The notes under the pieces are model-generated. The model saw nothing but the letters and a program-made list of their open reading frames with translations, had not been told where the DNA came from and made no database searches. The position numbers and the translations under genes are program-made. This document shows positions 2,192 through 21,399 of a stretch of 24,000 bases of DNA, in pieces. How positions within the stretch are numbered: position 1 is the first letter of the stretch; every line of letters starts with the position of its first letter. The stretch comes from an uncultured Porticoccus sp. (GTDB lineage: Bacteria; Pseudomonadota; Gammaproteobacteria; Pseudomonadales; Porticoccaceae), in assembly GCF_913061305.1 (NCBI RefSeq), contig NZ_CAJXST010000004.1, forward strand, positions 278,860 through 302,859, given 5' to 3'.

Positions 2192-2207
2192 TGGTACGTC
2201 TATTGCA
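2192..2207 (+). promoter_or_regulatory. Sigma54 (RpoN) -24/-12 promoter of the carboxylase operon
   Basis: TGGTACGtctaTTGCA compared with the consensus TGGCACG-N4-TTGCW: the GG and GC dinucleotides have exact spacing and there is a single mismatch (T for C). It sits about 105 bp upstream of the first start codon, and a sigma54 activator gene is present in the window. Confidence 0.7.
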
Positions 2208-2312
2208 TAAGTAATGGGGCTCTCTAGGTGGTGGCTATCTTTTTGGCCGCTTTCCAGTGAAGTTTATAACCCTAACTATTCTCGGCTAGTAAAAGAACTA
2301 AGGTAACTCGAT

Positions 2313-4247
2313 ATGGGAATGCTAATAAATATCGATAATGGCGGTACGCTCACAGATATCTGTGTGCTGACAGATAATAACTTCTACAAGACCAAAACTC
2401 TGACAACACCTTACGATTTGAGTAAGTGTTTTTTTGACGGTCTGCGGTCTGCTTCCAAAGCAGTTTACGGAGAAGAAAATGTCGCCCGTTTGTTGGCTGA
2501 AGTGGATCATATCCGCTATTCAACCACGCAGGGAACCAATGCCATTGTTGAACGTAAAGGTCCACGACTCGGTTTGATCATCAACAAGGGCTCTACGTTG
2601 CCTGCCCGTTTACGTGAGCAGGATCCTGAGCTCTATGACTTTCTGATTGGCGACAGGATTTCTGAGGTTGATTTGGCAGACGTGGATGACGAATCAAAAG
2701 GTGCAGATACCACCTCGGTTATTACGCGACTCACTTCCGTGGGTGCCAACCGTATTGTGGTCTGTTTTGAATCCGAGAAAGCTGACGAGTACGAAGCTCA
2801 GTTCAAGCGTATTGCCTTTGACAATTATCCTCGCCACCTGCTCGGCGCTGTTCCGATGCTGTTTGCCAGTGAACTGGCCGATGATGTGTCCACTGAGCGC
2901 CGTTGCTGGACTGCGATGATTAACTCATTTTTGCATCCGGCCATGGAGAACTTCCTCTATAACGCCGAAAACCGTCTTCGCGAGTATCGCACCAAGAACC
3001 CGCTGCTGATTTTCCGCAACGATGGTGATGCATCGCGCGTCGCAAAAACGATCGCTATAAAAACCTACAGTTCCGGTCCACGCGGTGGCATGGAAGGGGT
3101 TAAAACCTTCAGCAAGCAATACAACCTGCCCAACGTACTTTCCATGGACGTTGGTGGTACCACTACGGACATCGGTCATGTGATTGACCACGGTGTGCAC
3201 GAGCAGCGTCGCGGTACGGTTGAAGGTGTCCCCGTCTCCTTTGCGCTTTGTGAAATTGCCAGCCCCGGTGTGGGCGGCAGTTCTATTCTGACGGTCAAAG
3301 ACGGTGCCATCCAGGTAGGCCCGGAAAGTGTCGGTGCAGTACCCGGTCCGGCCTGTTTTGGTCGCGGTGGCAAGAACGCCACGATCACCGACGTAAACCT
3401 GCTGTTGGGTTTGCTGGATCCGTCCACGTTCTTCGGCGGCGGTCTGGCTCTCGATCTCGAGCGTGCCCGTACGGCAATCGCCGAAAATATTGCTACTCCG
3501 CTGGGCATTACCACAGATGACGCCCTGCTCCAGCTGCGCGATGCCTTCGAGCAGAAAATTGCCGGGGAACTGAAATCGTTTGGTGATATTAACAGCGATA
3601 CCGTGCTGCTCGCTTTTGGTGGAGCCGGTCCGATGAATGCTTGTGGTATCGCTGAAAACTGCGGTATTTCGACCGTGTTTGTGCCCAAAATGGCGGCGGT
3701 CTTCAGTGCCTTTGGCATTGGCTCCTGCGATATCGGCCAGAATTATTCCACCGTGTTGACCGGTAGCCGTCAGCAGGCACTGGAAACGGCCTATGCCTCA
3801 CTGATGGAGCGCGGCGAGCGAGACATGTTTGCCGAAGGTTATGGCAAGGGTGAATACGAAGTTGTGGCCCGACTGGTGGCAGAAAAGGCCGGTGTTGAGT
3901 CCATTCATGAACTGGGGCACACCATTACGATCCCGCAGGATATGGCAAAAGCTGACGATGTGACTCTCGAAATTGCGGTCCGTAAAAAGCTGAAAACCGA
4001 AGATAACAAGCACGCGGAAGTGTCCAAAGCGGCCCAGGCCCAATCGACCAAAAACCGTTCACTGTTTAGCGGTGCTGCTGGTTGGAACGACGTGCCTGTC
4101 TATGAAGTGAACAATATGCAGCCCGGTGCTCACGGCACAGGACCGGCTATCCTTGAGGAAGAATTCTTTACCTGCCTGGTTCGCGAAGGTTGGGAATTCG
4201 TGGTGACTGAGCTGGGCGATATCTGCCTGACCAAGGGGGACAAATAA
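2313..4247 (+). CDS. Hydantoinase A / oxoprolinase (HyuA) family protein; shorter paralogue, alpha'-like subunit of an ATP-dependent ketone carboxylase
   Basis: 644-aa ORF. It carries the ASKHA-type motifs IDNGGTLTD (N-terminus) and MDVGGTTTDIG. YSTTQGTNAIVERKGPRLGLI is typical of the HyuA N-terminal domain. It is clearly paralogous to 4707..6857. AAGGT lies 8 nt upstream of the ATG. Confidence 0.85.
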   Translation: MGMLINIDNGGTLTDICVLTDNNFYKTKTLTTPYDLSKCFFDGLRSASKAVYGEENVARLLAEVDHIRYSTTQGTNAIVERKGPRLGLIINKGSTLPARLREQDPELYDFLIGDRISEVDLADVDDESKGADTTSVITRLTSVGANRIVVCFESEKADEYEAQFKRIAFDNYPRHLLGAVPMLFASELADDVSTERRCWTAMINSFLHPAMENFLYNAENRLREYRTKNPLLIFRNDGDASRVAKTIAIKTYSSGPRGGMEGVKTFSKQYNLPNVLSMDVGGTTTDIGHVIDHGVHEQRRGTVEGVPVSFALCEIASPGVGGSSILTVKDGAIQVGPESVGAVPGPACFGRGGKNATITDVNLLLGLLDPSTFFGGGLALDLERARTAIAENIATPLGITTDDALLQLRDAFEQKIAGELKSFGDINSDTVLLAFGGAGPMNACGIAENCGISTVFVPKMAAVFSAFGIGSCDIGQNYSTVLTGSRQQALETAYASLMERGERDMFAEGYGKGEYEVVARLVAEKAGVESIHELGHTITIPQDMAKADDVTLEIAVRKKLKTEDNKHAEVSKAAQAQSTKNRSLFSGAAGWNDVPVYEVNNMQPGAHGTGPAILEEEFFTCLVREGWEFVVTELGDICLTKGDK

Positions 4248-4651
4248 TGAAAGTGTTGATGACTGAATATCTCCGTATTGATCTGGATTCGGAAAACTGG
4301 GAGTGTCGGGTGTGTGACCACGTGATTGGCCCAGCCCGCGGCAACTACAAAGAGGGTTTGCTGGTATACAACCGTGATCCAGCAGATATCCACCCGTCGA
4401 TTATCGACCCTGAAAAATACCGTTTCACCTTCTGTCCCGACAGGGAGTGGGTCAACATTTACGAGTTTTACTGTCCGTCCTGTGGCACTCAGGTAGAGGT
4501 TGAATACACCTTCCCCAACCATATGCCACTCTACGATATGGAAGTAGATATTGATGCCCTGAAAGAGCAGTGGAGTCACCGCGAAGAGATTCTCGAGCCG
4601 GTGAAAGGCCCCAATATTCTGGTAGATCGCTGTCACACCCACAAGCACTGA
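4247..4651 (+). CDS. Acetone/acetophenone carboxylase gamma-subunit family protein (small 4-Cys zinc protein)
   Basis: 134-aa ORF. Its ATG overlaps the upstream stop (TAATG, 4245..4249). Two Cys pairs (WECRVCDH and EFYCPSCGTQVEVEY) and a NYKEG block match my recollection of the acetone carboxylase gamma family. Confidence 0.8.
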   Translation: MKVLMTEYLRIDLDSENWECRVCDHVIGPARGNYKEGLLVYNRDPADIHPSIIDPEKYRFTFCPDREWVNIYEFYCPSCGTQVEVEYTFPNHMPLYDMEVDIDALKEQWSHREEILEPVKGPNILVDRCHTHKH

Positions 4652-4706
4652 TAGGGCTTGTTGATTGGTGATTGAATAAATTAGGTCTGTTTTAGGAAAA
4701 AAGGTT

Positions 4707-6857
4707 ATGAAACGTATATCAGTAGATATCGGTGGTACGTTTACCGATTGCTTTGTAGTGTGGGATGGCAAGTACATTGAAACCAAAGCGTTGACGACCC
4801 ACCAGAACCTGGCCCTCGGTTTTAACGAGGCCCTGGAAAACGCATACACTGAACTCGGCCTCACCATGGAAAGTATTCTTTCCGGAGTGGATTCGGTTCG
4901 CTACGCCACTACGCTGGGTACCAATGCCCTGATCGAGCACAAAGGTCCTCGCATCGGCATGCTGGTGACAGCGGGTTACGAGGCGATGGTGCCTCTCAGC
5001 CGTGGCCGCGGCTACGGTGAAGGTCTGGACGAGCTGGGCAAGCAAAACCTGCCCGATGCACAGCGCCCGGCCCCGCTGGTTCTGCCGCACATGATCGAAG
5101 GCGTTCGCGAGCGTCTCGGCTTTCAGGGTGAGCTGGTTATGCCGCTCGATGAGCCGGATGTGCGCGTCAAGATCAGAAAGCTGGTGGACAAGGGTGCTCA
5201 GGCCATTGTGGTCTGTCTGGTTAACTCCGTGGTTAACCCTGCCCATGAGAAGCGCGTCGAACAGATTTTGCTGGATGAGTACCCCTCACATCTGTTGGGT
5301 TCCATCCCGGTAATTCTGTCCCACCGCGTTGCCGGTCGGAAGGGCGAATATGTTCGTGCGACTTCGGCGATCGTTGATGGCTATCTTCACTCCACCATGT
5401 ATCACGCCATGAGCCAGCTGGAACAAAACCTGCGTTCCAACAAGTACGAAAAACCGATGTTGGTGATCCACAACTCCGGTGGTATGGCGCAGTTGAACTC
5501 CACCGATGCACTGCAAACCATTCACTCGGGTCCGGTATCCGGTATCAGTGCAGCGGAGCATTTGGCCAAGGAAGCCGACCTCGGCAGCGTGGTTGCCACC
5601 GATATGGGCGGCACCTCCTATGACATCGGTATCGTGGTTGAAGGCGGCATCAAGCACTATGACTTCAACCCGGTTATTGACCGCTGGTTGGTGTCCGTGC
5701 CCATGGTCCACCTGGTTACCCTCGGTGCGGGCGGCGGTTCCATCGCCAGCTTTGACCGGATGTACAACGCGGTTGCCGTCGGTCCGAAAAGTGCTGGCTC
5801 CGACCCCGGTCCAGCCTGTTATGACCGCGGTGGCATGAGTCCTACCGTAACGGATGCCGATTTGGTATTGGGTTATCTGGATCCCACCAACTATGCCGGT
5901 GGCCATATTCCGTTGAACCCCAAACGTTCCGTGTTCGCCATTGAAGAAACACTCTGTGACGACCTGGATGTATCACCGATTGAAGCGGCGCTGCTGATCA
6001 AGGAAAAAGTTGACAGCAACATGGCCAACGGCCTGCACACCGAGTTGCGGGTTCGCGGTTATGATCCCGAAGAGTTCACCATGCTCGCCTACGGTGGTAA
6101 TGGTCCGTTGCACTGTTGTGGTATTGCCAGCAATCTGAGCATTGACAAAATCCTGGCTCCGCCCATGAGCTCGGTATTCTCAGCGGTGGGTGCAGGCAAC
6201 ATGCATCAGATGCACATTCATGAAATGTCATTGTTCATGGTGCTGTACGATTCCAACACCCGCAAAGTGTTCGATGACTACACGCGCTTCAACGACATCG
6301 TTGCCGAGCTGAGCTCCCGTGGTCAAAACGATCTGCTGCGTCAGGGTATGAACCTTGAGGACATCCGTTATTCGCTGGAGCTGGATATGCGCTACGGTAA
6401 CCAGTTGGTTCAAACCACCGTGGTGGTGCCCAAGCACACCCTGGAATCTGCCATGGATGTCATGAATATCCTGCAACAGTTCTCCACGGACTACGGCAAG
6501 CGTTTCGGCGAAGGCAGTCAGGCACCGGAAGCGGGTATTCGTATCAACACCGTCCGTGTGGCTTCCTTCGTGGAGCACGAAACCGTGCACTTCAAACACA
6601 TCAAGCCGATCCCGGAAAGTGAGCGCATTGCGCCGCCGGAACCCATTGCCAAACGCACCTGCTACTTTGTCAGCACTGGTGCCAAGGCAATTGAAACACC
6701 GGTCTGGCGGAAAGCTGACATCCCGTCGGGAACAGAAATTGTGGGCCCCGGTATCGTGGCCTCGGAAGTAACAACCTACTTGATTGAACCGGGCTGGAAG
6801 TATGTCTCTGCCGAGCAGGGCGCCGTATGGTTCTTCCGCACCGATGCAAAAAATTGA
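4707..6857 (+). CDS. Hydantoinase A / oxoprolinase (HyuA) family protein; longer paralogue, alpha-like subunit of an ATP-dependent ketone carboxylase (equivalent of acetone carboxylase beta, AcxA type)
   Basis: 716-aa ORF. Motifs are VDIGGTFTD, YATTLGTNALIEHKGPRIGML, TDMGGTSYDIG and GAGGGSIA. AGGAAAAAAGG lies upstream of the ATG. Confidence 0.9.
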   Translation: MKRISVDIGGTFTDCFVVWDGKYIETKALTTHQNLALGFNEALENAYTELGLTMESILSGVDSVRYATTLGTNALIEHKGPRIGMLVTAGYEAMVPLSRGRGYGEGLDELGKQNLPDAQRPAPLVLPHMIEGVRERLGFQGELVMPLDEPDVRVKIRKLVDKGAQAIVVCLVNSVVNPAHEKRVEQILLDEYPSHLLGSIPVILSHRVAGRKGEYVRATSAIVDGYLHSTMYHAMSQLEQNLRSNKYEKPMLVIHNSGGMAQLNSTDALQTIHSGPVSGISAAEHLAKEADLGSVVATDMGGTSYDIGIVVEGGIKHYDFNPVIDRWLVSVPMVHLVTLGAGGGSIASFDRMYNAVAVGPKSAGSDPGPACYDRGGMSPTVTDADLVLGYLDPTNYAGGHIPLNPKRSVFAIEETLCDDLDVSPIEAALLIKEKVDSNMANGLHTELRVRGYDPEEFTMLAYGGNGPLHCCGIASNLSIDKILAPPMSSVFSAVGAGNMHQMHIHEMSLFMVLYDSNTRKVFDDYTRFNDIVAELSSRGQNDLLRQGMNLEDIRYSLELDMRYGNQLVQTTVVVPKHTLESAMDVMNILQQFSTDYGKRFGEGSQAPEAGIRINTVRVASFVEHETVHFKHIKPIPESERIAPPEPIAKRTCYFVSTGAKAIETPVWRKADIPSGTEIVGPGIVASEVTTYLIEPGWKYVSAEQGAVWFFRTDAKN

Positions 6858-6879
6858 GTGGATATAGGGGTATTTGATT

Positions 6880-9156
6880 ATGAATAACGAAACAAACAAT
6901 TCAGCTTTGCAAGATCAGGAGCTGATCGAAAAATTCCTCAAGGATACTACCCTTTTTCTGGGGCCCGATCCCGAGATCATGCGCGACCACCGCATCATGC
7001 CGCGCACGCCCGAAGAAGAAAAGGCGATGGAAGCTTTCACCGACCTCAACCAGATCGCCTCCATTCGCGACCGACTTCAGTCTGCCTGTGAAGAAGGTTT
7101 TGAAATGGTTGAGCAGATGGGTGCAGCTCCCGGTGCCAAGTGGGGTGACATTATCACCGGTATCTACTCGGCGTCTGGTGACCTCACGATCGGTAGTGCC
7201 GGCGGGGTATTGATCTTCTCCGCACTGGTTCACCACCCGATCAAGTTCATCATCAAGAACTGGATCGATGAAAAAACCGTAGGCGTCAGTGCGGGTGATG
7301 GCTTCATCCACAATGACTCCCGCTATGGCAACGTGCACAACACCGACCAGAGTATGATTCTGCCGGTATTCCACGAAGGCAAGCTGGTTTGCTGGGTGGC
7401 ATCCACTGTTCACGAAGGTGAGTGTGGTGCGATTGAGCCGGGCGGCATGCCTTCCATGGCGGAAACCTCCTTTGACGAAGGCCTGAAAATGTCTCCGTTC
7501 AAAGTGGTGGAAAACTACGAGATCAAGCGAGACCTGCTGACCTTCCTGCAGAATTCCGTGCGCGAGCCAAAGCTGCAATATGAAGACATGAAGGTAAAAC
7601 TGTTTGCCTGTATGCGTCTCGAAAAGCGTATCAAGGAAGTTCTGTCCACTGACGGTCCGGAAGCTCTGACCGCCTGTCTGCGTTACACCAACGAGAGTGT
7701 GGTAACTGAAGTCCGTCGCCGCATTTCCGAGTGGCCCGACATGACCGTGCGCACTCAGACCATCATGGATAGCACCCTGCGCGAAAATGCGCTGCTGAAA
7801 GTCAACCTGGCGGTGATCAAGAAAGGTGATCGGCTCATTTTTGATTTCTCTGGCACCAGCCCCGAGCTGACCAACCGGGCTATCAACACCCAGTTGCCCG
7901 GCATGAAGGGCATGGTGGGTCAGGCCTTCATGAACCACATCTGGCCGGATCTGCCCCGTGGTCAGGCGGGTCTGTCGCCCGTGGAGTTCGTGACTCAGCC
8001 CGGTACCCTGGTGGACTGTTCCTACTCAGCGCCAAACTCCCAGAGTCTGATGTCCATCTTCCACAGCTTTACAGTGGCCCAGCACGCCTGCGCCAAATTC
8101 CTGTACAGCTGTCCGGACAAGTACACCCGTGTACTGGCGCCCTGGCACAACATGATCAACACCTTCATCTGGGGTGGTGTCAACCAGCACGGTGAAACCC
8201 TGGGCAACCTCTGTGCCGACCTGAACGGTATGGGCGGCGGTGCTCGTATGGACCGCGATGGTGAACACGCGCTGTCGCCAATCTTTGCCACCATGGCGGA
8301 TATCGGTGAACAGGAAATGAACGAGGAAGAAGTTCCGTTCCTGCAACTGGTGTCCAAGAAAATGACGGCCAACACTCAGGCACCCGGCAAATACCGCGGC
8401 GGCATGGGTTACACCATGATCGCGGCCACCAAGGACAGTGAGCAGTGGGGCTTCATGACCACCACTCAGGGTTCCAAGGTGCCTACGATCCAGGGTCTGT
8501 TTGGCGGCTATGCCGGTGGTTCTTATCCCCTGTGTAAAGTTCAGGGTGTAGACGTGTATGAAGTTTTGCTGGAAAATCCGCAACTGTTCAAACACAGCAT
8601 CCACGAGATCATGAATGAGCAGCCGTTCCCGGATGCCAGATACACCACCCACCACATGGGTATGGGTTTTGACATTTCCAAACGCGGTGAGCTTTACATG
8701 ATCTCCCAGGGTAGTGGCGGCGGTTATGGTGACCCCCTCGAACGCGACCCCTTGTATGTCATCATGGATATTGAGGAAGGTTTGATTTCTCCCGAGTGGG
8801 CGAAAAAACTCTACAAGGTGGAGTTCAACGAAACCACTCTGGTCGTGGATAATGAGGCTACCGAAAAACTGCGTGCCGAGTATCGCGAGCAACGGAAAAA
8901 GCAGGGCGTGCCCTATGCCGAGTTCGTCAAGACTCAGGTCAAGGATCATCCACCCGAGAACATTCCGTTCTATGGTGCCTGGAATGGTGACAACGAGGTG
9001 ATTTATGCCGGCAGTCTCGACGACAAGCGCGATGCTCAAAACCCCGGCCCGATCTACGTCACCCATCCAAAAGACGTGAGAATTGCCGAACTGGAAGCCA
9101 AGCTGGCAGCGGCCAGGAAAGACGCTGGTCTCCCGCCCGAGAACGAAAGGAAATAG
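6880..9156 (+). CDS. Hydantoinase B / oxoprolinase (HyuB) family protein; catalytic large subunit of the ketone carboxylase (AcxB / Apc-beta type)
   Basis: The track start is TTG 6874. I prefer ATG 6880 because AGGGG at 6866..6870 is then about 9 nt upstream. The product is 758 aa. The HyuB-type C-terminal signature SQGSGGGYGDPLERDP is followed by DIEEGLIS, and the protein is homolog-like throughout. Confidence 0.9.
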   Translation: MNNETNNSALQDQELIEKFLKDTTLFLGPDPEIMRDHRIMPRTPEEEKAMEAFTDLNQIASIRDRLQSACEEGFEMVEQMGAAPGAKWGDIITGIYSASGDLTIGSAGGVLIFSALVHHPIKFIIKNWIDEKTVGVSAGDGFIHNDSRYGNVHNTDQSMILPVFHEGKLVCWVASTVHEGECGAIEPGGMPSMAETSFDEGLKMSPFKVVENYEIKRDLLTFLQNSVREPKLQYEDMKVKLFACMRLEKRIKEVLSTDGPEALTACLRYTNESVVTEVRRRISEWPDMTVRTQTIMDSTLRENALLKVNLAVIKKGDRLIFDFSGTSPELTNRAINTQLPGMKGMVGQAFMNHIWPDLPRGQAGLSPVEFVTQPGTLVDCSYSAPNSQSLMSIFHSFTVAQHACAKFLYSCPDKYTRVLAPWHNMINTFIWGGVNQHGETLGNLCADLNGMGGGARMDRDGEHALSPIFATMADIGEQEMNEEEVPFLQLVSKKMTANTQAPGKYRGGMGYTMIAATKDSEQWGFMTTTQGSKVPTIQGLFGGYAGGSYPLCKVQGVDVYEVLLENPQLFKHSIHEIMNEQPFPDARYTTHHMGMGFDISKRGELYMISQGSGGGYGDPLERDPLYVIMDIEEGLISPEWAKKLYKVEFNETTLVVDNEATEKLRAEYREQRKKQGVPYAEFVKTQVKDHPPENIPFYGAWNGDNEVIYAGSLDDKRDAQNPGPIYVTHPKDVRIAELEAKLAAARKDAGLPPENERK

Positions 9157-9157
9157 T

Positions 9158-10018
9158 ATGGCTTTAGAACTTACGTCCTATCTGGCAGCCGGGGGGGAAA
9201 CCCCCCGGCTTTGGATTAATTTCAACGACTACACCAAAAAACTATTGCTGGGCAAGGATGAAAATCCCTGGACCAACCCCGCTGCCTATATGTCGTTTTA
9301 TCGTCAGGCTCACGGTCTGGTGAAAGCCCAGGTAGTTGTTATCGATGTGTGGGACCTGTTTCAGCACTGGATCAGGGAAGACGCGGAGGCACTGCCGGCC
9401 ATGGCGGGCAAGCGGCGGGTCACTGCCGCCCTGAAAGCCATGCTGGAAGCCTATGCACCGCGTGAACTGTTGGCAGAGGTCATCACGGCCCTGGCCAATA
9501 ACTACAGCAGTTCTGCCCCTCTGGTCATGGTGCTGCCATCCCCCCGTGCGCTGCTGGTCAAGGCTCATCAGGCCGCCAACGGCGAGACTGCCGAGCCGGA
9601 TGAAATGAGCGTCGATACGGCAGCAATGTACGTGGCCGATTTCCTGCGTTATTTCAGCGAAACCGAGCTCTCCGGTGTGTTGCTGGTGGAAGATCCCGCA
9701 CTGATGCCTGCCAGCGGTGCTGAGTTGACCTGGTATCAGCCCGTTTATAACGTAGCAAAACACTACCGCTGGTCTGTGGGGCTGTATCTGCCCACAGCGG
9801 ATGCCGATTTCGATGTGCCCGCAGATCTGGCCTTTACCATTGCCCCGGCGACATCGCCGTTGGGGGCCACATCCAAAGGTGTCGAAGTGACAGACCTGCT
9901 CTGGGGTGATCAGGCGGGCCAATCGCTACCATCGGTGGAGGGATTTTATTACCTGACTATTCCGCCGGATGCGAAACCCGAGTTGGTACTTGATACCCTG
10001 TCGAGCCTGAAGGGTTAA
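9158..10018 (+). CDS. Hypothetical protein (286 aa), tightly coupled to the carboxylase genes; possible accessory (epsilon-like) subunit
   Basis: The track ORF 9083..10018 overlaps the upstream gene. I prefer ATG 9158 (MALELTSYLAAGG...), which is 1 nt after the TAG stop and has AAGGA about 9 nt upstream. It has no motif I can assign and no signal peptide or TM segment. Its codon usage and composition resemble its neighbours. Confidence 0.6.
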   Translation: MALELTSYLAAGGETPRLWINFNDYTKKLLLGKDENPWTNPAAYMSFYRQAHGLVKAQVVVIDVWDLFQHWIREDAEALPAMAGKRRVTAALKAMLEAYAPRELLAEVITALANNYSSSAPLVMVLPSPRALLVKAHQAANGETAEPDEMSVDTAAMYVADFLRYFSETELSGVLLVEDPALMPASGAELTWYQPVYNVAKHYRWSVGLYLPTADADFDVPADLAFTIAPATSPLGATSKGVEVTDLLWGDQAGQSLPSVEGFYYLTIPPDAKPELVLDTLSSLKG

Positions 10019-10046
10019 CCGGATCCAGTCGTAAGCGAGGCCCATC

Positions 10047-11612
10047 ATGCGTCTAGTCGATTTTCTCGATCAGAGTCCTGCCCTGTCCTCAGAGAAAGCG
10101 AAGTTTGTCGATCTGGACAATGATCTGTCGCTGAGCTATCGGCAAATGGTCGATGCCTCGGTCAAGATTGCCGCGTTGTTAAAGGAACGGGGGGTGAAGC
10201 GACAGGACATCGTCGCTACCTACGCCCCCAATTCCGTGGCGGCCTTCTGCTGCATCTTCGCCATTTCCCGGGCGGGTGCTGTCTGGTTGCCGCTGAATAT
10301 GCGCAACACCTTTGAGGCCAACCGCAAATTGATTGAAAAATCCGGTGCGGTAAAACTCTTTGTGGACGGCAGCGTCGCCACCGCTTTTCCTGAACTGTCC
10401 GACACTTTTCCCGATGATCAGCTCATTGAACTCAATGGCCAGCGTGTCGCCGGTATTGATCTTCGTGCGCTTTCCGGTCAGGCATCGGTCGTCGATTCGG
10501 AAAGCGATGTGGATGACGGGGCAGGGCTGGTCAACCTGTTTGCCACTGGGGGCACCACTGGCGACTCCAAGCTGGCGGAGTGGGGAAGTCTCACCTGGGA
10601 TACGCTTTCGGCGATTCAGAATGAATTGATGCCTTTGCCTGAGATTCCCGCCTGCTATCTGGTGGCGGCTCCCATGACCCATGCCGCCGGTATAGCCGCT
10701 TTCGAAGTGATTCGCCAGGGTGCCAACGTTGTCGTGATGGAGGGCATGGTGCCGGAGAGACTGCTGGCCACTATCGAAACCCATCGGGTCACCCACCTGT
10801 TCATGCCGCCCACCGCGATCTACATGTTACTGGCCCATCCTCGGGTGAAAGCCTGGGATTACAGCAGCCTGCGTTATTTCTGGTATGCGGCGGCACCGAT
10901 GTCGGTGGAAAAGCTCAAGGAAGCCATTGACGTTTTCGGGCCGGTGATGGTGCAGACCTACGGTCAGGCTGAAGCGCCGATGCTCTGTACCTTCCTCTCC
11001 GCCGAAGATCACGTGCTGGCGCTGGAAGGCAACAACCCCTCCATACTGCGTTCCTGTGGCAAGACATCGCCTCACGTCGAGGTGGCCGTTATGGATGACG
11101 AGGGCAACCTTCTCGAGCCGGGGCAGGAGGGAGAAATTGCCATCAGGGGCAACCTGCTGATGCGGGCCTATTACCGGAATCCTGAAGCTACCGAAGCGAT
11201 CCGCTGCGAGGGCGGCTGGCAGCGCTCCGGAGACATCGGCGTTTTTGATGAGCAGGGTTACCTGGCGATTGTCGACCGCAAGCGGGACATGATCATTTCC
11301 GGTGGCTTTAATGTCTACCCCAGCGAAATCGAGCAGTTGCTCTGGGGGCATTCGGCGATCAAGGACTGTGCCGTGATCGGTATCCCCGATGAAAAATGGG
11401 GCGAGCAGGTTACCGCAGTGGTGGAATTAAAGGATAAATCCCAATCGCCGGACGAGCAGGAGATTATTCAATACTGCAAAAGCAAGCTGGGTAGCGTCAA
11501 GGCACCCAAGCAGGTTCTGTTCTGGGATGAGCTGCCGCGCAGTCCCGTTGGCAAGGTTCTGAAAAAAGAAATTCGCAAGGTTTTCTGGGAGGCGGCGGGT
11601 CGCAAGATCTGA
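10047..11612 (+). CDS. Acyl-CoA synthetase / AMP-dependent ligase (class I adenylate-forming enzyme); candidate beta-ketoacid-CoA ligase
   Basis: 521-aa ORF. Motifs are ATGGTTGDSK (P-loop-like A3), YGQAE (A5), SGDIG...DRKRDMIISGGFNVYP (A7/A8) and PRSPVGKVLKKE (A10 Lys). Confidence 0.9.
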   Translation: MRLVDFLDQSPALSSEKAKFVDLDNDLSLSYRQMVDASVKIAALLKERGVKRQDIVATYAPNSVAAFCCIFAISRAGAVWLPLNMRNTFEANRKLIEKSGAVKLFVDGSVATAFPELSDTFPDDQLIELNGQRVAGIDLRALSGQASVVDSESDVDDGAGLVNLFATGGTTGDSKLAEWGSLTWDTLSAIQNELMPLPEIPACYLVAAPMTHAAGIAAFEVIRQGANVVVMEGMVPERLLATIETHRVTHLFMPPTAIYMLLAHPRVKAWDYSSLRYFWYAAAPMSVEKLKEAIDVFGPVMVQTYGQAEAPMLCTFLSAEDHVLALEGNNPSILRSCGKTSPHVEVAVMDDEGNLLEPGQEGEIAIRGNLLMRAYYRNPEATEAIRCEGGWQRSGDIGVFDEQGYLAIVDRKRDMIISGGFNVYPSEIEQLLWGHSAIKDCAVIGIPDEKWGEQVTAVVELKDKSQSPDEQEIIQYCKSKLGSVKAPKQVLFWDELPRSPVGKVLKKEIRKVFWEAAGRKI

Positions 11613-11703
11613 ACCGTTCCCGTCTCGGCTGCGTTTTTTATACACCTGTTGGCCGGGGCTGAAACACTTAACCATCTGTCTGTAATAGTAGTGAGGATAT
11701 ATT

Positions 11704-12969
11704 GTGAAGGTTAGTATTGTTGGTGCGTATAACAGCAAGTTTGGTGCGTTCGTCAAACGCGACCGTGAAACCGGTGAGGTCGAGGACCTCAAATCCTTTT
11801 ATGAATTGCTGACAGAAGCGGGGGCGGGTGCCATCGCTGATGCCGGGCTGGAAGCAAAGGACATCGATGCCATCTGGGTCGGTGCCTGCTCTCCATCCCT
11901 GTTCGTGAATCAGGAACACGTCGGGCCGCTGGCGCTGGAGATTGATCCCGAAGGGTTGCTGTTCAAGCCCACCACCCGCACCGAAGGAGCCTGTGCCACC
12001 TCCTCCCTGGCCATCTACAATGCCGCCTACGCGGTGGCCTCCGGCCGGTTCAAAAATGTGCTGGCGATTGGTGTCGAGAAAATGAACACCCTGAATACCG
12101 CCGGGGTGACCCATGCGCTGTCCTGTTGCTCCTACTGGCCGGAAGAGGGTAACAGGGGCATGACCTTCCCCGGTTTGTTTGCCGAACTGGGCAAGGCTTA
12201 CCAGGAGAAAGAAGAACTGTCCCCCGAACAGTTGCGCATCATGTTGGCCCACGTCAGTGCCCTGAACTACCGCAACGGTATCCAGAATCCACTGGCGCAT
12301 TTTGGCCCCGGTAGCATACCGGACATCAACAAGTTGACTACCGCCGAGGCGATCCTCAACCTGCCGGAATCGGGTAAGGGTAGCAACCCGATGATTGCCC
12401 CGCCATTGCGTCTGCACGATTGCTCACTGATTACCGATGGGGCGGCCGCCGTGGTGCTCACTTCAAGCGACAACGCCAAAGCCAGTTTCAATCATGCCGT
12501 TGAGCTGTCCGGTATCGGCCATGTGACCGATCGAATGATGCTCAAGGAGCGTATCGGCCGCCTGCATGAGCTTCGCGCCACTTGCCACGCCGTCGACCTG
12601 GCCCTGAAAGAGGCGGGTGCCACCGTGGATGATCTCGATCTGGCGGAGGTGCATGACTGCTTCACTATCAACCAACTTCTCTGCGTCGAAGCCATTGGCC
12701 TGTCCGAGTCGGGTCGTGCCGGTTACGATTTCATGAGTGGTAAATACGACCCTGACAGCGACTGTCCTATCAACCTGTCCGGTGGTCTGAAATCCAAGGG
12801 GCACCCGGTGGGTGCCACAGGGGCATCGATGCACGCGCTGGTCTACAAACAACTGGTGGGCGAACCGATCGGGGTGGCGGCAAAGGGCAATCCCGAAGTG
12901 GCGATGACCGTTAACATCGGTGGTTCCGGTGTGACCAACTGTGTCTCGGTGATGCGCCGACTCAAGTAG
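11704..12969 (+). CDS. Thiolase-fold protein (SCP-x / nonspecific-lipid-transfer-type thiolase subfamily); candidate beta-ketoacyl-CoA thiolase
   Basis: 421-aa ORF with a GTG start and GAGGA 7 nt upstream. The N-terminus is MKVSIVGAYNSKFG. The nucleophile context is EGACATSSLA. EVHDCFTINQL and GGLKSKGHPVGATG blocks are typical of this thiolase subfamily. Confidence 0.85.
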   Translation: MKVSIVGAYNSKFGAFVKRDRETGEVEDLKSFYELLTEAGAGAIADAGLEAKDIDAIWVGACSPSLFVNQEHVGPLALEIDPEGLLFKPTTRTEGACATSSLAIYNAAYAVASGRFKNVLAIGVEKMNTLNTAGVTHALSCCSYWPEEGNRGMTFPGLFAELGKAYQEKEELSPEQLRIMLAHVSALNYRNGIQNPLAHFGPGSIPDINKLTTAEAILNLPESGKGSNPMIAPPLRLHDCSLITDGAAAVVLTSSDNAKASFNHAVELSGIGHVTDRMMLKERIGRLHELRATCHAVDLALKEAGATVDDLDLAEVHDCFTINQLLCVEAIGLSESGRAGYDFMSGKYDPDSDCPINLSGGLKSKGHPVGATGASMHALVYKQLVGEPIGVAAKGNPEVAMTVNIGGSGVTNCVSVMRRLK

Positions 12970-12980
12970 CACTTTCCTCC

Positions 12981-13027
12981 CTGACAGGGTGCGGGCCGGT
13001 CACCGGCTCGCCCCTGCCAGTTTTTTT
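12981..13027 (+). terminator. Rho-independent terminator ending the carboxylase / ligase / thiolase operon
   Basis: A long GC-rich hairpin spans 12981..13020 (ctgacagggtgcgggccgg-tca-ccggctcgcccctgccag). It has about 17 pairs including one G-U, one bulge and one mismatch. T7 follows immediately at 13021..13027. Confidence 0.7.
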
Positions 13028-13232: not shown

Positions 13233-13955
13233 ATGCCAAAAGTAGCACTGGTGACTGGGGGAACAAGAGGTATCGGTGAAGTCATTGCTATTGAGCTCAA
13301 GGAGGCGGGCTATCTGACGGTGGCCAATTACGGAGGCAACGATGAACGGGCTCGCGAGTTCAGGGAGCGAACCGGTATTCCCACCTACAAGTTTGATGTA
13401 TCCGATTTCGATGCCTGTAAAAACGGTATCGAAACGATAGAGCGCGATATCGGACCTGTCTCCATTCTGGTCAATAACGCGGGGATCACCCGCGATGGCA
13501 CTTTGCACAAAATGTCCCGGCAATCCTGGCAGGAGGTGCTGGATACCAATCTGGGTTCCTGTTTCAACATGAGCCGCTGTGTGATCGAGGGCATGCGTGA
13601 GCGCCGCTTTGGCCGTATCGTTAATATCGGCTCACTGAACGGTCAGGCAGGGCAGTATGGGCAGGTCAACTACGCTGCGGCAAAGTCCGGTATTCACGGC
13701 TTTACCAAGGCGCTGGCGCTGGAAGGTGCGGGCATGGGGATTACAGTCAATGCGGTGGCCCCCGGCTATGTGGAAACCGATATGGTGAGGGCCGTGCCCG
13801 CCGCTGTGCTGGAAAAAATTGTCGCCCGTATTCCCGTTGGTCGGCTGGGCTCCGCCCACGATATCGCCCGGGGCGTATTGTTTCTGGTGTCCGATGAGAG
13901 CGGTTTCATTACTGGCTCCACCCTGTCCATCAACGGTGGTCAGCATATGTACTAG
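13233..13955 (+). CDS. phbB: Acetoacetyl-CoA reductase (NADPH-dependent short-chain dehydrogenase, PhbB/PhaB type)
   Basis: 240-aa ORF with GGAG 8 nt upstream. It has TGGTRGIG, NNAGIT and YAAAK (catalytic Y-x3-K). Along its length it resembles the roughly 241-aa PhbB sequences I remember (VALVTGG.RGIG ... GRIVNI.S.NGQ.GQ.GQ.NY.AAK ... ITVN...PGY..T.MV.A.P ... IPVGRLG ... FITGST.S.NGGQ). Confidence 0.85.
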   Translation: MPKVALVTGGTRGIGEVIAIELKEAGYLTVANYGGNDERAREFRERTGIPTYKFDVSDFDACKNGIETIERDIGPVSILVNNAGITRDGTLHKMSRQSWQEVLDTNLGSCFNMSRCVIEGMRERRFGRIVNIGSLNGQAGQYGQVNYAAAKSGIHGFTKALALEGAGMGITVNAVAPGYVETDMVRAVPAAVLEKIVARIPVGRLGSAHDIARGVLFLVSDESGFITGSTLSINGGQHMY

Positions 13956-14025: not shown

Positions 14026-16041
14026 TCAGGCCGGCTTCTTCAGACGGTACTTTTTCATTTTCTGGTAGAGTGTACTCTTGGCGATGCCCAACTGTTTGGC
14101 CGCTTGGGTCATATTGCCTTCCGCCTGTTTGATGGCGGCCTCGATGGTGGATTTTTCAACCCGGTCCAGATTGCCCTGGGGCGGGGTGATGAAAGCGTTG
14201 GAGTGTTCCGGCTCCAGATTGCTTTCCCCCGGACGATAACCTTCGGGGAGATCGTCAATCGTCAGGGTCTCGTTGCTGGACATAAAGCACATGCACTCCA
14301 CCACATTGGCCAGCTCGCGGATATTGCCCGGCCACTCGCGGCTTTTCAGGGCTGTCATCAGGCCCGGTGAGAAGCGTTTCGCTGCGATGTCGTCGGTTTT
14401 GCGGATGCGTGTCATCACCAGTTGAGCGATCCCTTCGATATCTTCCTTGCGGCCCGACAGTGGGTCCAGACTGATGGTCACGGTCGATAGACGGAAATAC
14501 AGATCCTTGCGGAACAATCCCTCGTTCACCGCCCCTTTCAGGTCGCGATTAGTGGCGGCAATCAGTCGGAAGTCCACCGGAATCGGTTTGATATCCCCCA
14601 CCCGGTAAATTTTCTTCTCCTGCAGTACCCTCAGAAACACCGGCTGCAATTCCAGCGGCAGTTCGCCAATTTCGTCGAGGAACAAGGTGCCGCCATTGGC
14701 CGCCTCGATTTTGCCCATCATGCCGCCCTTGCGTGCGCCCGTGAACGCCCCCTCCACATGGCCGAACAGCTCACTGCTGAGAATATCCCGGGTGAAGCCA
14801 CCGCAATTGAGGTCGATAAACGGCCCGTCAGCGTACTGGCTGCTGTCGTGGATGGCCTTGGCAAACACTTCCTTGCCGACCCCGGTATCGCCCAGGATCA
14901 ACACTGGCAGCGGCGTATTTGCCGCCTTGCGGGCCTTGTCCGCGCTGGCCTGAAAAGAGGGGCTCTTGCCGTAGATGTCATCAAACGGATCGAGACTGCC
15001 TGCCGGGCTGGCGGCCAGTGGCTCGGCCGTGGGCTTGGCGGCAGAGCGGCGCGGTGATGGCACCAGCACCTGAAAGCCGACGATATTGCCCTTGTGAAGT
15101 ATCGGTTCCACCCAATCCTCCGACACCCACAATCCTGCGTCGTGCGGGTAGACGATTTCATCGCCGCCGAAGCGCTGCATGGAGAGGCGTCGTTTGGTTT
15201 CGGGATCGTAGTCGATACCCAGGGAGTCCAGCGCGGCAGCGGCGTTGGCGGTGGAGTTGATCAGTCGGCCCTGTTTGTCCAGCAGCAGCTTGCCGGTGTT
15301 GCGGTAGTGGCCGAACTGGCTGTTGCTGTGCTCGATGATCAGGCTCCACAGGTCCGAGGTCTTTTTCGCCAGGCCCGATTGAATCTGGCTGGCCCAGGCC
15401 ACCACCAGCGGCACGTGGAATTTATCGTAAATGCTGCACAGTCCGGACAGGTCAATCACGCCCATCATCTGGTTGTCGTAGGGGTCGGCGATGACCGCCG
15501 CCGTGCAGGTCCAGGGTTTAAAGCCCTGAATGTAGTGTTCTTCGCCGTGCACCTGGGTCGGCTTGCGGGTTGCCATGGCGGTGCCCACGGCGTTGGAGCC
15601 GGAGTGGCCCTCGTTCCAGCCACTGCCCTCCACCAGTCCGATATCCCGGGCATCGTCAATGGTTCTGGGGTCGCCAACAATCTGCAGGTTCAGTCCCTGG
15701 TAGTCGGTCAGGTAGAGGATGGTCTCGAGATCCTGCAGAAACAGGCGCGCCTGTTCCAGCACAGGTTCGGCGCACAGCAATAAATCGGAGTTTCTCAGCC
15801 GGTGGTGGGACAGGGTGTTTTCGGAGACCAGCAGTGGTGCCGCTTTCTGTTCCGGGTTGACGCCCTGGGACAGGCAGCGCTCCCAGGAGCTGGCAATCAC
15901 GTCGCGAATCGGCAGGTCTTTGGCCTGGCCGCCCTTGCAGAGAAATTGCTCCCACGCGCGATCAATACCCCGCTGGGCATTCAGGCTGTCGCCGCTGGGC
16001 CGATAAATCAGGCCGGGCTTTTTGGTACTTGAGCCTCTCAC
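14026..16041 (-). CDS. Sigma54-dependent transcriptional activator, AcoR/AcxR type (N-terminal GAF-like sensor, AAA+ sigma54-interaction domain, C-terminal Fis-type HTH)
   Basis: 671-aa ORF with a GTG start and GGGAGG 9 nt upstream. Walker A is GDTGVGKE, the sigma54-contact loop is GAFTGA (VEGAFTGARKGG), and there are ELFGH and GTLFLDEIGELP motifs. The C-terminal HTH is GNMTQAAKQLGIAKSTLYQKMKKY. The N-terminal block GSGWNEGHSGSNAVGTAMA...EHY...WTCTAAVIADP...GVIDLSG is the AcoR-family sensor signature. Confidence 0.9.
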   Translation of the reverse strand: MRGSSTKKPGLIYRPSGDSLNAQRGIDRAWEQFLCKGGQAKDLPIRDVIASSWERCLSQGVNPEQKAAPLLVSENTLSHHRLRNSDLLLCAEPVLEQARLFLQDLETILYLTDYQGLNLQIVGDPRTIDDARDIGLVEGSGWNEGHSGSNAVGTAMATRKPTQVHGEEHYIQGFKPWTCTAAVIADPYDNQMMGVIDLSGLCSIYDKFHVPLVVAWASQIQSGLAKKTSDLWSLIIEHSNSQFGHYRNTGKLLLDKQGRLINSTANAAAALDSLGIDYDPETKRRLSMQRFGGDEIVYPHDAGLWVSEDWVEPILHKGNIVGFQVLVPSPRRSAAKPTAEPLAASPAGSLDPFDDIYGKSPSFQASADKARKAANTPLPVLILGDTGVGKEVFAKAIHDSSQYADGPFIDLNCGGFTRDILSSELFGHVEGAFTGARKGGMMGKIEAANGGTLFLDEIGELPLELQPVFLRVLQEKKIYRVGDIKPIPVDFRLIAATNRDLKGAVNEGLFRKDLYFRLSTVTISLDPLSGRKEDIEGIAQLVMTRIRKTDDIAAKRFSPGLMTALKSREWPGNIRELANVVECMCFMSSNETLTIDDLPEGYRPGESNLEPEHSNAFITPPQGNLDRVEKSTIEAAIKQAEGNMTQAAKQLGIAKSTLYQKMKKYRLKKPA

Positions 16042-16075
16042 TGTGGGTGACCTCCCCCGTTGTCAGGTAAACGGC

Positions 16076-16098
16076 CGGGTAATCGGGCGGGTAATCGG
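16076..16098. repeat. Tandem direct repeat CGGGTAATCGG x2 (12-bp period) just upstream of the regulator gene
   Basis: Identical 11-mers at 16076..16086 and 16088..16098, read directly. They lie 35-57 bp upstream of the regulator's GTG start. Confidence 0.85.
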
Positions 16099-16548
16099 CA
16101 ATGACGTGCTAAATCCATCGTCTGCGCTCACTGTTATTGGGCTTGCTCACTGCCTTGTTGCGTCCCACTGGCATTTCCCGCCGGGCAAAGATAAGTATAA
16201 GCCTCACACGGGGGCGACCGATAATAACACGCAGCGCCATGACCTGTAAGTCCGTTGATAAGAGCCCGTGCTGACGCGTGCCGGACAGTGCAGCAACCGC
16301 GAATTCTCCACCCGCCGGGCCCGCTCGGCCCAAAAAAATATCTGGAACCCCATAAATTGGGCTTGCCATGATTTTTCTTTAATCATACGATTTGTGTCGG
16401 GGTTCGTCCGATAATAATACGTTTAATATCGTGAAAGCCCCATGAACAAAGGCGTTCAGCGAAGAAGGTGCGACCGGAAGACCCTCGGTAACCAGTGTAT
16501 TGACCGTTTTTCGGACGCAATTACCACATTTATGTGGCAAAACTGTTG

Positions 16549-16577
16549 TTGCTGTTGGGGAAGAAGCTGTTTATATT
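16549..16577 (+). promoter_or_regulatory. Candidate sigma70 promoter for the envelope-module operon
   Basis: TTGCTG (16549..16554), a 17-nt spacer, then TATATT (16572..16577), about 65 nt upstream of the DUF1302 start. This is a motif match only. Confidence 0.3.
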
Positions 16578-16642
16578 TCGCATTGCTGTGCGGAATGTGC
16601 GGCGGCAACTAATAATAGTTAATAAATTAGTGGGAGAAGAAA

Positions 16643-18454: not shown

Positions 18455-18538
18455 TAAAGATAATAACGAAAATTTGTGCAACTATTGCAAAACCGGATAG
18501 TCACAAATAAGACTTATTTTAAAACTGGGAGTAAGACT

Positions 18539-19987: not shown

Positions 19988-20007
19988 TTCGAACCGGTTC
20001 GTTCTGA

Positions 20008-20053
20008 AACAGGGCTGTCAGGCAAACCTAATCGTTTATCTGGCAGCTCTGTT
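20008..20053 (+). other. Intercistronic RNA hairpin between the DUF1329 and BNR genes
   Basis: AACAGGGCTGTCAG (20008..20021) pairs with CTGGCAGCTCTGTT (20040..20053). That is 14 contiguous pairs in RNA (12 Watson-Crick and 2 G-U) with an 18-nt loop. No U-tract follows. Confidence 0.5.
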
Positions 20054-20161
20054 GCAGTTTACACACTGAAAAATCAATAAAAACGACCGATCAGACGGTG
20101 TTCGTAGCACTGTAGTAGTAAAGGTGGCCTTCCTGGTCATTTAGATTTTTTTGGGGGTTTT

Positions 20162-21313: not shown

Positions 21314-21316
21314 TCA

Positions 21317-21346
21317 TTGACACAGTTGCGTGACGATTCAAATAAA
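21317..21346 (+). promoter_or_regulatory. Candidate internal sigma70 promoter ahead of the RND gene
   Basis: A perfect -35 TTGACA (21317..21322), an 18-nt spacer, then AATAAA (21341..21346). The -10 is weak, and this is a motif match only. Confidence 0.25.
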
Positions 21347-21399
21347 CAATTAAAAGATGCGCCCATCCAGGCAGTTTCGGATGGTTGGTGGAGGATAAC

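Follow-up and report, generated by a model that had tools for sequence, protein, structure and literature searches.

Gene Content of the Locus

The window analyzed here is a stretch of 24,000 nucleotides (nt) from an uncultured Porticoccus sp. (contig NZ_CAJXST010000004.1, positions 278,860 to 302,859). It contains seven genes on the + strand (2313-12969), located between a sigma-54 promoter (2192-2207) and a terminator (12981-13027). We regard it as probable that these genes form a sigma-54-controlled catabolic ketone operon, consisting of a five-subunit carboxylase with the architecture of acetophenone carboxylase (Apc), a CoA ligase, and a thiolase. An original prediction, made from the sequence alone, had described seven same-strand genes with overlaps or tiny gaps; the open reading frame layout and the family matches recovered all of them, the first five at the sizes it had given. 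The features of the operon are as follows (aa, amino acids; Acx, acetone carboxylase).

2192-2207, + strand: sigma-54 (-24/-12) promoter, TGGTACgtctaTTGCA, 106 nt upstream of the first gene
2313-4247, + strand: alpha' subunit (ApcA-like HyuA paralog, 644 aa), putative bicarbonate kinase; NCBIfam, PDB, and ASKHA motifs
4247-4651, + strand: gamma subunit (ApcB-like, 134 aa), Cys4 zinc ribbon; PF08882 (Acetone_carb_G), 2.3e-34
4707-6857, + strand: alpha subunit (ApcC-like HyuA, 716 aa), putative ketone kinase; 5L9W_B 4e-165 versus 1.6e-82 for Acx
6880-9156, + strand: beta subunit (ApcD-like HyuB, 758 aa from ATG); 5L9W_A 1.9e-87 versus 3.5e-41 for Acx alpha
9158-10018, + strand: epsilon-like subunit (286 aa), predicted URO-D/MtaA-like (beta/alpha)8 barrel; AlphaFold2 plus Foldseek, and position
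10047-11612, + strand: FadD-type acyl-CoA ligase (521 aa), putative 3-oxoacid-CoA ligase; PF00501, PF13193
11704-12969, + strand: thiolase (421 aa), archaeal/SCP2-like "thiolase domain-containing" type; PRK07516, 337 bits
12981-13027, + strand: intrinsic terminator, GC-rich hairpin followed by U7; folding

The gamma gene overlaps the alpha' gene by 1 nt (TAATG), and a single nucleotide separates the beta gene from the gene for the epsilon-like protein. An upstream TTG at 6874 would extend the HyuB homolog to 760 aa. The order alpha'-gamma-alpha-beta-epsilon is that of apcABCDE.

An alignment of the fifth protein was used to scan 185,579 species genomes, which yielded 141 loci; 80 of these were kept for the locus comparison. 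The loci fall into two tiers. The marine tier comprises Porticoccus, Cellvibrionales, "Thiotrichaceae" metagenome-assembled genomes (MAGs), and Thalassotalea, and the second tier (or beta-tier) comprises Zoogloea, Rhodocyclaceae, Aromatoleum diolicum, Azotobacter, Xanthobacter, Pseudomonas psychrophila, and Geobacter. Neighbor counts for the marine tier (n = 35) refer to the loci with enough flanking sequence. The fifth protein of the window is 97% identical to its homolog in a Porticoccus MAG and 76% identical to the one in P. litoralis DSM 25064. The five-gene core was syntenic in all 80 of the related genome loci examined (those long enough), and independent metagenome assemblies, among them a 573-kb scaffold, carry identical calls for these genes; the arrangement is therefore not due to chance.

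The promoter sequence TGGTACgtctaTTGCA is the sole match in the window to the degenerate pattern TGGYRY-N5-TTGCW. The canonical sigma-54 pattern TGGC-N8-TGC did not pick it up, position 4 being a T. In 22 loci a sigma-54 motif precedes the first carboxylase gene, at a distance of 113-134 nt in 16 marine loci and 163-181 nt in 6 second-tier loci; across these loci the spacer sequence varies and the GG/GC elements are retained. At the other end of the operon, the strong terminator predicted after the thiolase gene was corroborated by folding. The hairpin (12981-13020) has a folding free energy of -31.4 kcal/mol (z -4.96), none of 200 shuffled sequences folded as well, and U7 follows. A simple terminator scanner had overlooked this hairpin owing to a bulge in its stem.

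Comparison of the Core Subunits with Known Systems

The core subunits were compared with all PDB sequences, Pfam, and NCBIfam, the latter including the Apc equivalog models NF042960, NF042974, NF042975, and NF042976, each with its curated cutoff. NCBIfam ranked ApcA, ApcB, ApcC, and ApcD top for the four core subunits. In the PDB, each core subunit matched its cognate chain of Apc from Aromatoleum aromaticum EbN1 (5L9W) better than any Acx chain. The E-values for Apc and the best Acx were 3e-87 (top match, 5L9W_b) versus 5e-42 for alpha', 2e-27 (5L9W_C) versus 2e-5 for gamma, 4e-165 versus 2e-82 for alpha, and 2e-87 versus 4e-41 for beta. The corresponding bit scores for Apc versus the best Acx or hydantoinase-type (Hyd) match were 297 versus 166, 99 versus 28, 554 versus 281, and 297 versus 144, respectively. 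Caprolactamase/oxoprolinase (6YRA) and N-methylhydantoinase (7HK5) scored lower than Acx against the core subunits. In these profile and PDB comparisons with Acx, caprolactamase, hydantoinase, and oxoprolinase, all four core subunits scored best with Apc; a comparison of this kind had been called for by the original prediction. Its reading of the gene inventory as following the Apc rather than the Acx pattern also agrees with the gene order and with the ApcE-like fold of the fifth protein described below.

Both HyuA paralogs carry the ATP-binding motifs of the ASKHA fold: DNGGTLTD, DVGGT, and GAVPGP in alpha', and DIGGTFTD, DIGGT, and GSDPGP in alpha, where the alignment-equivalent PHOSPHATE 2 motif is DMGGT. 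The PHOSPHATE 1, PHOSPHATE 2, and ADENOSINE motifs of both paralogs are kept in nearly all members of the clade to which the window belongs. The fingerprint R/KERiDsxG, expected in alpha but not in alpha' of the Apc branch, is mostly kept by the window alpha subunit, where it reads RERLGFQG (D to G); other clade members have RERLDFEG, RERLDFQG, and similar sequences. The four cysteines of gamma are at positions 20, 23, 76, and 79. The H/D/H metal triad is present in beta; we dropped this triad of Acx as a discriminator because it is conserved in Acx, Apc, and the window clade alike.

The alpha'-gamma-alpha-beta-epsilon order is a hallmark of the Apc branch, in which epsilon is optional and far more divergent than the other subunits; a single enzyme of this branch has been characterized so far (Weidenweber et al., PMC5214803). 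With ApcABCDE of EbN1 (5L9W for the core, 9FOU for ApcE) the window shares the five subunits in the same order, the ATP motifs in both HyuA paralogs, the Cys4 motif of gamma, the URO-D-like barrel of epsilon (as predicted), and a CoA ligase gene after the carboxylase genes. The window differs in that its beta subunit is 74 aa longer and its epsilon-like protein has no detectable sequence similarity to ApcE. In addition, true apc operons (loci L007 and L009) adjoin a two-component system, whereas the window operon adjoins a sigma-54 activator, and the window carboxylase is linked to an AmeABCD-like cassette.

AcxABC (Xanthobacter autotrophicus, 5SVB/5M45; A. aromaticum) belongs to the same superfamily and shares with the window the gamma zinc ribbon, the H/D/H triad, a beta-type subunit of about 760-776 aa, sigma-54-type regulation, and a 3-oxoacid product fed to a thiolase (presumed for the window). 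However, Acx has three subunits, in the order HyuA, HyuB, gamma (about 168 aa), and lacks alpha' and epsilon; the window has five, and its gamma subunit (134 aa) is encoded between the two HyuA genes. The HyuB homolog of the window scores 144 bits against 5M45_A, in contrast to the 1043 bits against 5SVB_A of a genuine Acx HyuB found in the marine gammaproteobacterial MAG L021.

The Fifth Protein

The original prediction had called the 286-aa protein unassignable. This was correct insofar as it has no Pfam or NCBIfam match; its predicted fold, however, finds ApcE on top. The AlphaFold2 model (pLDDT 92, pTM 0.91) contains eight beta/alpha units. In a Foldseek search against 350,542 PDB chains, the three best matches were chains of 9FOU (ApcE), with E 3.5e-9 and TM 0.64-0.67; the next matches, MtaA-like methyltransferases and uroporphyrinogen decarboxylases, had E 4e-5 or worse. 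Because 9FOU is the top fold match and the gene is located directly after the beta gene, we consider the protein to be a predicted remote ApcE-type epsilon subunit, the link being structural and positional.

Direct sequence homology between the fifth protein and ApcE was considered and rejected: BLASTP, hidden Markov model (HMM) searches, and hhalign of the two family profiles were all insignificant, and the fold search alone links the two. The insignificant alignments with ApcE always cover the same region, in which the family-invariant NVAKHYRW pairs with NVARFHR, invariant in ApcE. With the window protein, the enigmatic epsilon subunit may have a second, strongly diverged representative, and residues common to both families, e.g., N-V-A-[KR]-x-x-R, can guide mechanistic work. 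A member of the ApcE family (P0489) carries a precomputed Pfam URO-D match (PF01208), in agreement with the URO-D/MtaA-like fold of the window protein.

A Sister Clade of the Apc Branch

Core subunits of the marine tier are 68-100% identical to those of the window. The second tier has 57-60% identity for alpha', 64-72% for gamma, 75-78% for alpha, 69-73% for beta, and 35-41% for epsilon. For comparison, EbN1 ApcD was rebuilt from a PDB alignment, and orthologs were found from it; the EbN1-type apc operon L007 was then fetched. It encodes ApcA-E (ApcE being 303 aa long) together with a ligase of the PaaK type and two short-chain dehydrogenases/reductases (SDRs). Bona fide Apc orthologs form a tight group, being 684 aa long and at least 76% identical to EbN1 ApcD, whereas the window beta subunit (758 aa) is 29% identical. 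Genuine Acx HyuB has 23% identity to the window beta subunit.

We compared the seven proposed acetophenone-pocket residues of Apc-alpha (L81, F281, N282, P285, I333, Q344, and T345). At these positions the window reads T-I-H-P-I-H-L, and all 47 clade sequences scored read T-I-H-P-I/V-H-L; true Apc has L-F-N-P-I-Q-T and Acx L-I-V-P-M-A-M. The window pocket differs from Apc at five of the seven positions (P285 and I333 are kept, and F281 is replaced by I) and from Acx also at five of seven. Together with two of three alpha' pocket residues, these five are changed relative to Apc and fixed differently across the window clade. These comparisons place the operon in an uncharacterized sister clade of the Apc branch and argue that it is not an Apc ortholog. 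A substrate different from that of Apc is likely because both presumed kinase pockets carry clade-specific invariant residues. The sister clade appears coherent and large: it was found in 141 of the 185,579 species genomes, and a profile search for the epsilon-like family retrieved 526 representatives from a library clustered at 50% identity (127 matches in a word-indexed search).

The Ligase, the Thiolase, and Their Neighbors

The best PDB matches of the ligase are FadD8, FadD13, and feruloyl-CoA synthetase. The CoA ligase that the original prediction had placed after the carboxylase genes, as in Apc, is indeed present, but it is of the FadD type (521 aa) and not a homolog of the PaaK-type benzoylacetate-CoA ligase (Bal): the apc loci L007 and L009 encode PaaK-type Bal (AMP-binding plus AMP-binding_C_2) of 452-464 aa, and tblastn gave no match between the window ligase and these PaaK-type ligases. 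The thiolase matches acetoacetyl-CoA thiolase (6ESQ, 2e-51) and the SCP2-thiolase-like 4BI9 (1e-50) in the PDB. It had been regarded as an addition to the Apc pattern; it is present here but not unique, since the apc operon L009 has a thiolase too.

Ligase and thiolase adjoin the core in 34 of the 35 marine loci, which upholds the idea that the pair completes a route from ketone to acyl-CoA. In 7 loci, a ScoA/ScoB 3-oxoacid CoA-transferase pair is located beside the core and replaces or joins the ligase (Geobacter/Desulfuromonadaceae, Ampullimonas, Azotobacter beijerinckii, Thalassotalea, and one marine MAG). ScoA scores 255 bits (cutoff 128.5), and a related thiolase follows ScoAB in the Geobacter-type loci. 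The product of a ketone carboxylation would fit this context because two interchangeable modes of 3-oxoacid CoA activation are each followed by thiolysis.

Downstream of the terminator are an SDR gene, a regulator gene, and four consecutive genes (16643-23748) that constitute an AmeABCD-type family set according to Pfam:

13233-13955, + strand: PhaB-family acetoacetyl-CoA reductase-type SDR (240 aa); TIGR01829, 336.7 bits (cutoff 302.1)
14026-16041, - strand: sigma-54 enhancer-binding activator (MimR_N + GAF + AAA+ + HTH_8), probable regulator; Pfam
16643-18454, + strand: DUF1302 outer-membrane protein (AmeA-like); PF06980
18476-19987, + strand: DUF1329/LolA-like periplasmic protein (AmeB-like); PF07044, 6.8e-49
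20041-20055, + strand: second sigma-54-like element, TGGCAGCTCTGTTGC, inside the cassette; TGGC-N8-TGC, 107 nt upstream of the BNR gene
20162-21313, + strand: BNR/Ycf48-like periplasmic protein (AmeC-like); PF14870, BNR repeats
21385-23748, + strand: HAE3-type resistance-nodulation-division (RND)/MMPL inner-membrane transporter (AmeD-like, 787 aa); PF03176

The SDR matches 4KMS (3.7e-84). Of the 35 marine loci, 17 have it, and these 17 all belong to the Porticoccus subclade.

Two further gene families recur beside the cluster in other genomes. A zinc-free QOR/PIG3-type medium-chain dehydrogenase/reductase (MDR) is present in both tiers (about 20 other loci, sometimes in 2-3 copies; e.g., L026:14924-15916, L042:13866-14849, and L005:18404-19387) and absent from the window lineage; its role could be the reduction of an enone to a saturated ketone, or the oxidation of a secondary alcohol. 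CobW-family GTPase metallochaperone genes adjoin the core in 15 second-tier loci (e.g., L005, L051, L067, and L088) and also occur in the true apc operons (L007 and L009), which suggests a dedicated delivery of metal (zinc?) to these enzymes. No CobW-family gene is present in the window.

Regulation and the Ame-like Cassette

The sigma-54 activator adjoins the cluster in 25 of the 35 marine loci, and more distant homologs are located beside 14 of 30 second-tier loci. The streamlined Porticoccus genomes (1.3-1.4 Mb; L042, L044, L046, and L047) keep the whole cluster and the Ame-like cassette; within their 10-kb flanks, the sigma-54 activator and the promoter motif are both missing. In these genomes the cluster may be expressed constitutively.

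The hydrophobic-compound envelope module that had been noted next to the operon proved, by its four Pfam families, to be an AmeABCD-type cassette with an HAE3-type RND transporter. In the marine tier 24 of 26 loci, and in the second tier 12 of 26, have the cassette within 10 kb of the core; members of different bacterial classes share this linkage to the carboxylase. In Castellaniella defragrans, AmeABCD, with AmeA a DUF1302 protein and AmeD an HAE3 protein of 787 aa, confers monoterpene tolerance (PMC6394551), and a cassette of this type in Pseudomonas is co-fit on fatty esters. The window set resembles the Castellaniella system, which effluxes apolar monoterpenes, in having the same four families beside catabolic genes for a (putatively) hydrophobic substrate; it differs in that the predicted transport cassette is located beside a presumed ketone carboxylase and not monoterpene genes.

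Matches to TGGC-N8-TGC are not enriched in the window, and TGGCAGCTCTGTTGC is weak on its own. Sigma-54 motifs are, however, also located upstream of the BNR/RND genes in many second-tier loci (Zoogloea, Rhodocyclaceae), and taken together these elements suggest that the cassette is co-regulated with the carboxylase. In the Geobacter-type loci (L060, L067, L070, and L077) and the apc operon L007, a gene for a Phenol_MetA_deg-family outer-membrane channel occurs in place of the Ame-like cassette.

Proposed Function and Alternative Explanations

In the reading that we favor, the two ASKHA kinase subunits would each use ATP, one to convert the ketone to an enol phosphate and the other to convert bicarbonate to carboxyphosphate; joining of the two would give a 3-oxoacid. 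The FadD-type ligase would activate this acid to the 3-oxoacyl-CoA, which the thiolase would cleave to acetyl-CoA and a second acyl-CoA. The cell could thereby probably grow on the ketone and fix CO2 at the same time. The signal for the MimR_N/GAF sigma-54 activator is probably the ketone or an alcohol that precedes it, and the Ame-like RND cassette probably serves the transport of, or tolerance to, a hydrophobic or solvent-like substrate. The data show the gene content, the family assignments, the promoter and the terminator, the synteny across the clade, and the pocket residues specific to it; the carboxylase activity, the order of the steps, and the substrate are inferred.

We consider the most likely substrate to be a ketone of short to medium chain length that is neither aromatic nor acetone itself. 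The original prediction had considered both aliphatic and aromatic methyl ketones plausible. The pocket residues and the type of ligase disfavor acetophenone, and with it the aromatic part of that proposal; short- and medium-chain aliphatic ketones remain compatible with the data. Acetone is unlikely because genuine Acx co-occurs with the same cluster in the marine MAG L021, where it is encoded at 14394-18591, 5.8 kb downstream of the five genes, the ligase, and the thiolase, and where its HyuA pocket reads LLVPMAM. L021 can be described as a "ketone island" with two carboxylase types.

Several observations weigh against a ketone-carboxylating operon of the Apc branch. All four NCBIfam equivalog cutoffs were missed (354 versus 1250, 117 versus 250, 598 versus 1500, and 325 versus 1500 bits for the ApcA to ApcD models), and true Apc is just 32% (alpha'), 46% (gamma), 40% (alpha), and 29% (beta) identical to the window. 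Of 54 clade sequences, 53 have S/D/D in place of the residues proposed to bind bicarbonate in alpha' (E248, D274, and K281), and the alpha pocket residues are themselves a tentative assignment in the 2017 Apc structure paper. The similarity of the fifth protein to ApcE is insignificant by sequence (BLASTP E 0.009, HMM 0-4 bits, hhalign probability 2.8%). No member of the clade has been characterized, and activity, ATP stoichiometry, and substrate rest on homology. The SDR is located beyond the terminator and confined to one subclade. Finally, the clues to the substrate conflict with one another: the PhaB-type reductase, ScoAB, and the acetoacetyl-CoA-thiolase-like enzyme point to C4-C6 3-oxoacids, whereas a more hydrophobic substrate is suggested by the Ame-like cassette and the FadD-type ligase.

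A possible, though on balance doubtful, extension is that the clade constitutes a distinct, hitherto unrecognized class of ATP-dependent carboxylases for hydrophobic or medium-chain aliphatic ketones that are imported or tolerated via the Ame-like cassette, a class kept even by the abundant, streamlined Porticoccus of the surface ocean. Candidates would be 2-alkanones and isoprenoid or carotenoid-derived methyl ketones; carboxylation possibly takes place at an alpha-methylene, which would give 2-alkyl-3-oxoacids suited to an SCP2-like thiolase. If this were true, the clade would give marine heterotrophs a second way of assimilating CO2 with the help of ketones, and marine surveys that use HyuB as marker could lump it with "acetone carboxylase".

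The substrate question is directly testable because the cluster is present in culturable, genetically tractable bacteria, namely P. litoralis DSM 25064, Azotobacter vinelandii, Zoogloea dura, and Pseudomonas psychrophila. The answer may matter for the marine turnover of volatile organic carbon and for heterotrophic CO2 fixation, since the cluster is kept in a streamlined Porticoccus of 1.44 Mb related to an abundant Arctic population. This genome, Porticoccus sp. Uisw_050_02 (L042, NZ_CP159825.1, 410-431 kb), belongs to a sister strain of "P. arcticus"; its five-gene cluster is located downstream of alaS and lysC, the same chromosomal position as in the window scaffold. According to a 2026 preprint (10.64898/2026.08.16.745133), P. 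hydrocarbonoclasticus and "P. arcticus" both have acxABC, scoAB, and atoD, and "acxABC" is very highly expressed in "P. arcticus", an abundant Arctic population.

The alternative that survives best, although we judge it improbable, is that the operon encodes an alternative, perhaps high-affinity, acetone carboxylase. Acetone would be converted via acetoacetate and acetoacetyl-CoA to two acetyl-CoA, with the PhaB-type reductase diverting carbon to storage. The downstream SDR meets the acetoacetyl-CoA reductase model, the nearest solved relative of the thiolase is an acetoacetyl-CoA thiolase, and in the 7 loci described above ScoAB-type CoA-transferases replace or join the ligase. Moreover, the MimR_N domain of the regulator is named after an acetone/propane regulator, and Uisw_050_02, which keeps the cluster, is a sister of the organism to which the preprint ascribes highly expressed acetone carboxylase genes. 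However, the genuine three-subunit-type Acx beside the same cluster in L021 implies that the two are not redundant. All subunits are much nearer to Apc than to Acx, and the pocket is unlike that of Acx at five of seven positions. The ligase is of the FadD type and not an acetoacetyl-CoA synthetase, and an RND cassette for hydrophobic compounds would be needless for acetone. P. hydrocarbonoclasticus grows on acetone, yet it is not among the genomes found with the fifth protein.

A very unlikely alternative is that the enzyme is not a carboxylase and belongs to the ATP-dependent hydantoinases and oxoprolinases in the wide sense, phosphorylating a carbonyl group ahead of hydrolysis, isomerization, or elimination. 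Its substrate might then be a lactam, cyclic ketone, or diketone, with ligase and thiolase processing the ring-opened acid. CapAB caprolactamase, 5-oxoprolinase, and N-methylhydantoinase (6YRA and 7HK5) have the same HyuA/HyuB (alpha/beta) core and ATP-dependent carbonyl activation. The changed bicarbonate residues of alpha' (S/D/D versus E/D/K) would also be in keeping with this alternative, and the clade-specific histidines of the alpha pocket suggest a more polar substrate. However, the Hyd-type enzymes, built from two subunits or a fusion protein, have no gamma, alpha', or epsilon (PMC5214803), whereas the window encodes all three. Their scores are well below those of Apc (166 versus 297 bits for alpha' and 84 versus 297 bits for beta), and the product of a ketone carboxylation needs precisely what is conserved here, namely activation of a 3-oxoacid (by ligase or ScoAB) and then a thiolase.

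Remoter still is a divergent ortholog of A. aromaticum Apc for acetophenone or other aromatic methyl ketones, acting in the catabolism of ethylbenzene, 1-phenylethanol, or acetophenone: each of the four core subunits finds an Apc subunit as its best database match, the gene order and the ApcE-like fold agree, and Porticoccus species are associated with hydrocarbon degradation, but the window beta subunit falls far outside the tight group of true Apc in identity and length, all equivalog cutoffs were missed, five of seven pocket residues differ (including F281 to I), a FadD-type ligase stands in place of PaaK-type Bal, a sigma-54 activator is found and not the two-component system of true apc operons, and ethylbenzene dehydrogenase genes are absent from the window.

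Two further links were considered and dropped. The first, C3 carboxylation of 2-alkanones as in the anaerobic use of alkanes by Desulfococcus oleovorans Hxd3, had looked compatible in GC content and gene set; a literature search was without result, and the host is an aerobic-type marine Porticoccus. The second was a possible connection to enzymes of the steroid side chain (25-hydroxysteroid kinase); the neighborhood gives no hint of steroid catabolism.

Genes Upstream of the Operon

Directly upstream of the sigma-54 promoter is a gene for a DUF3565 + DUF1971/TehB-like protein (1403-1906, + strand), which occupies the same place in 13 loci of the Porticoccus subclade and is possibly, but not necessarily, connected with the operon. 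Further upstream, on the - strand (548-1264), the window encodes a cytochrome P460-family protein (PF16694, 3e-23) with no apparent connection to the operon; it is present too in L001 and L010. P460 proteins are usually tied to hydroxylamine or NO chemistry.

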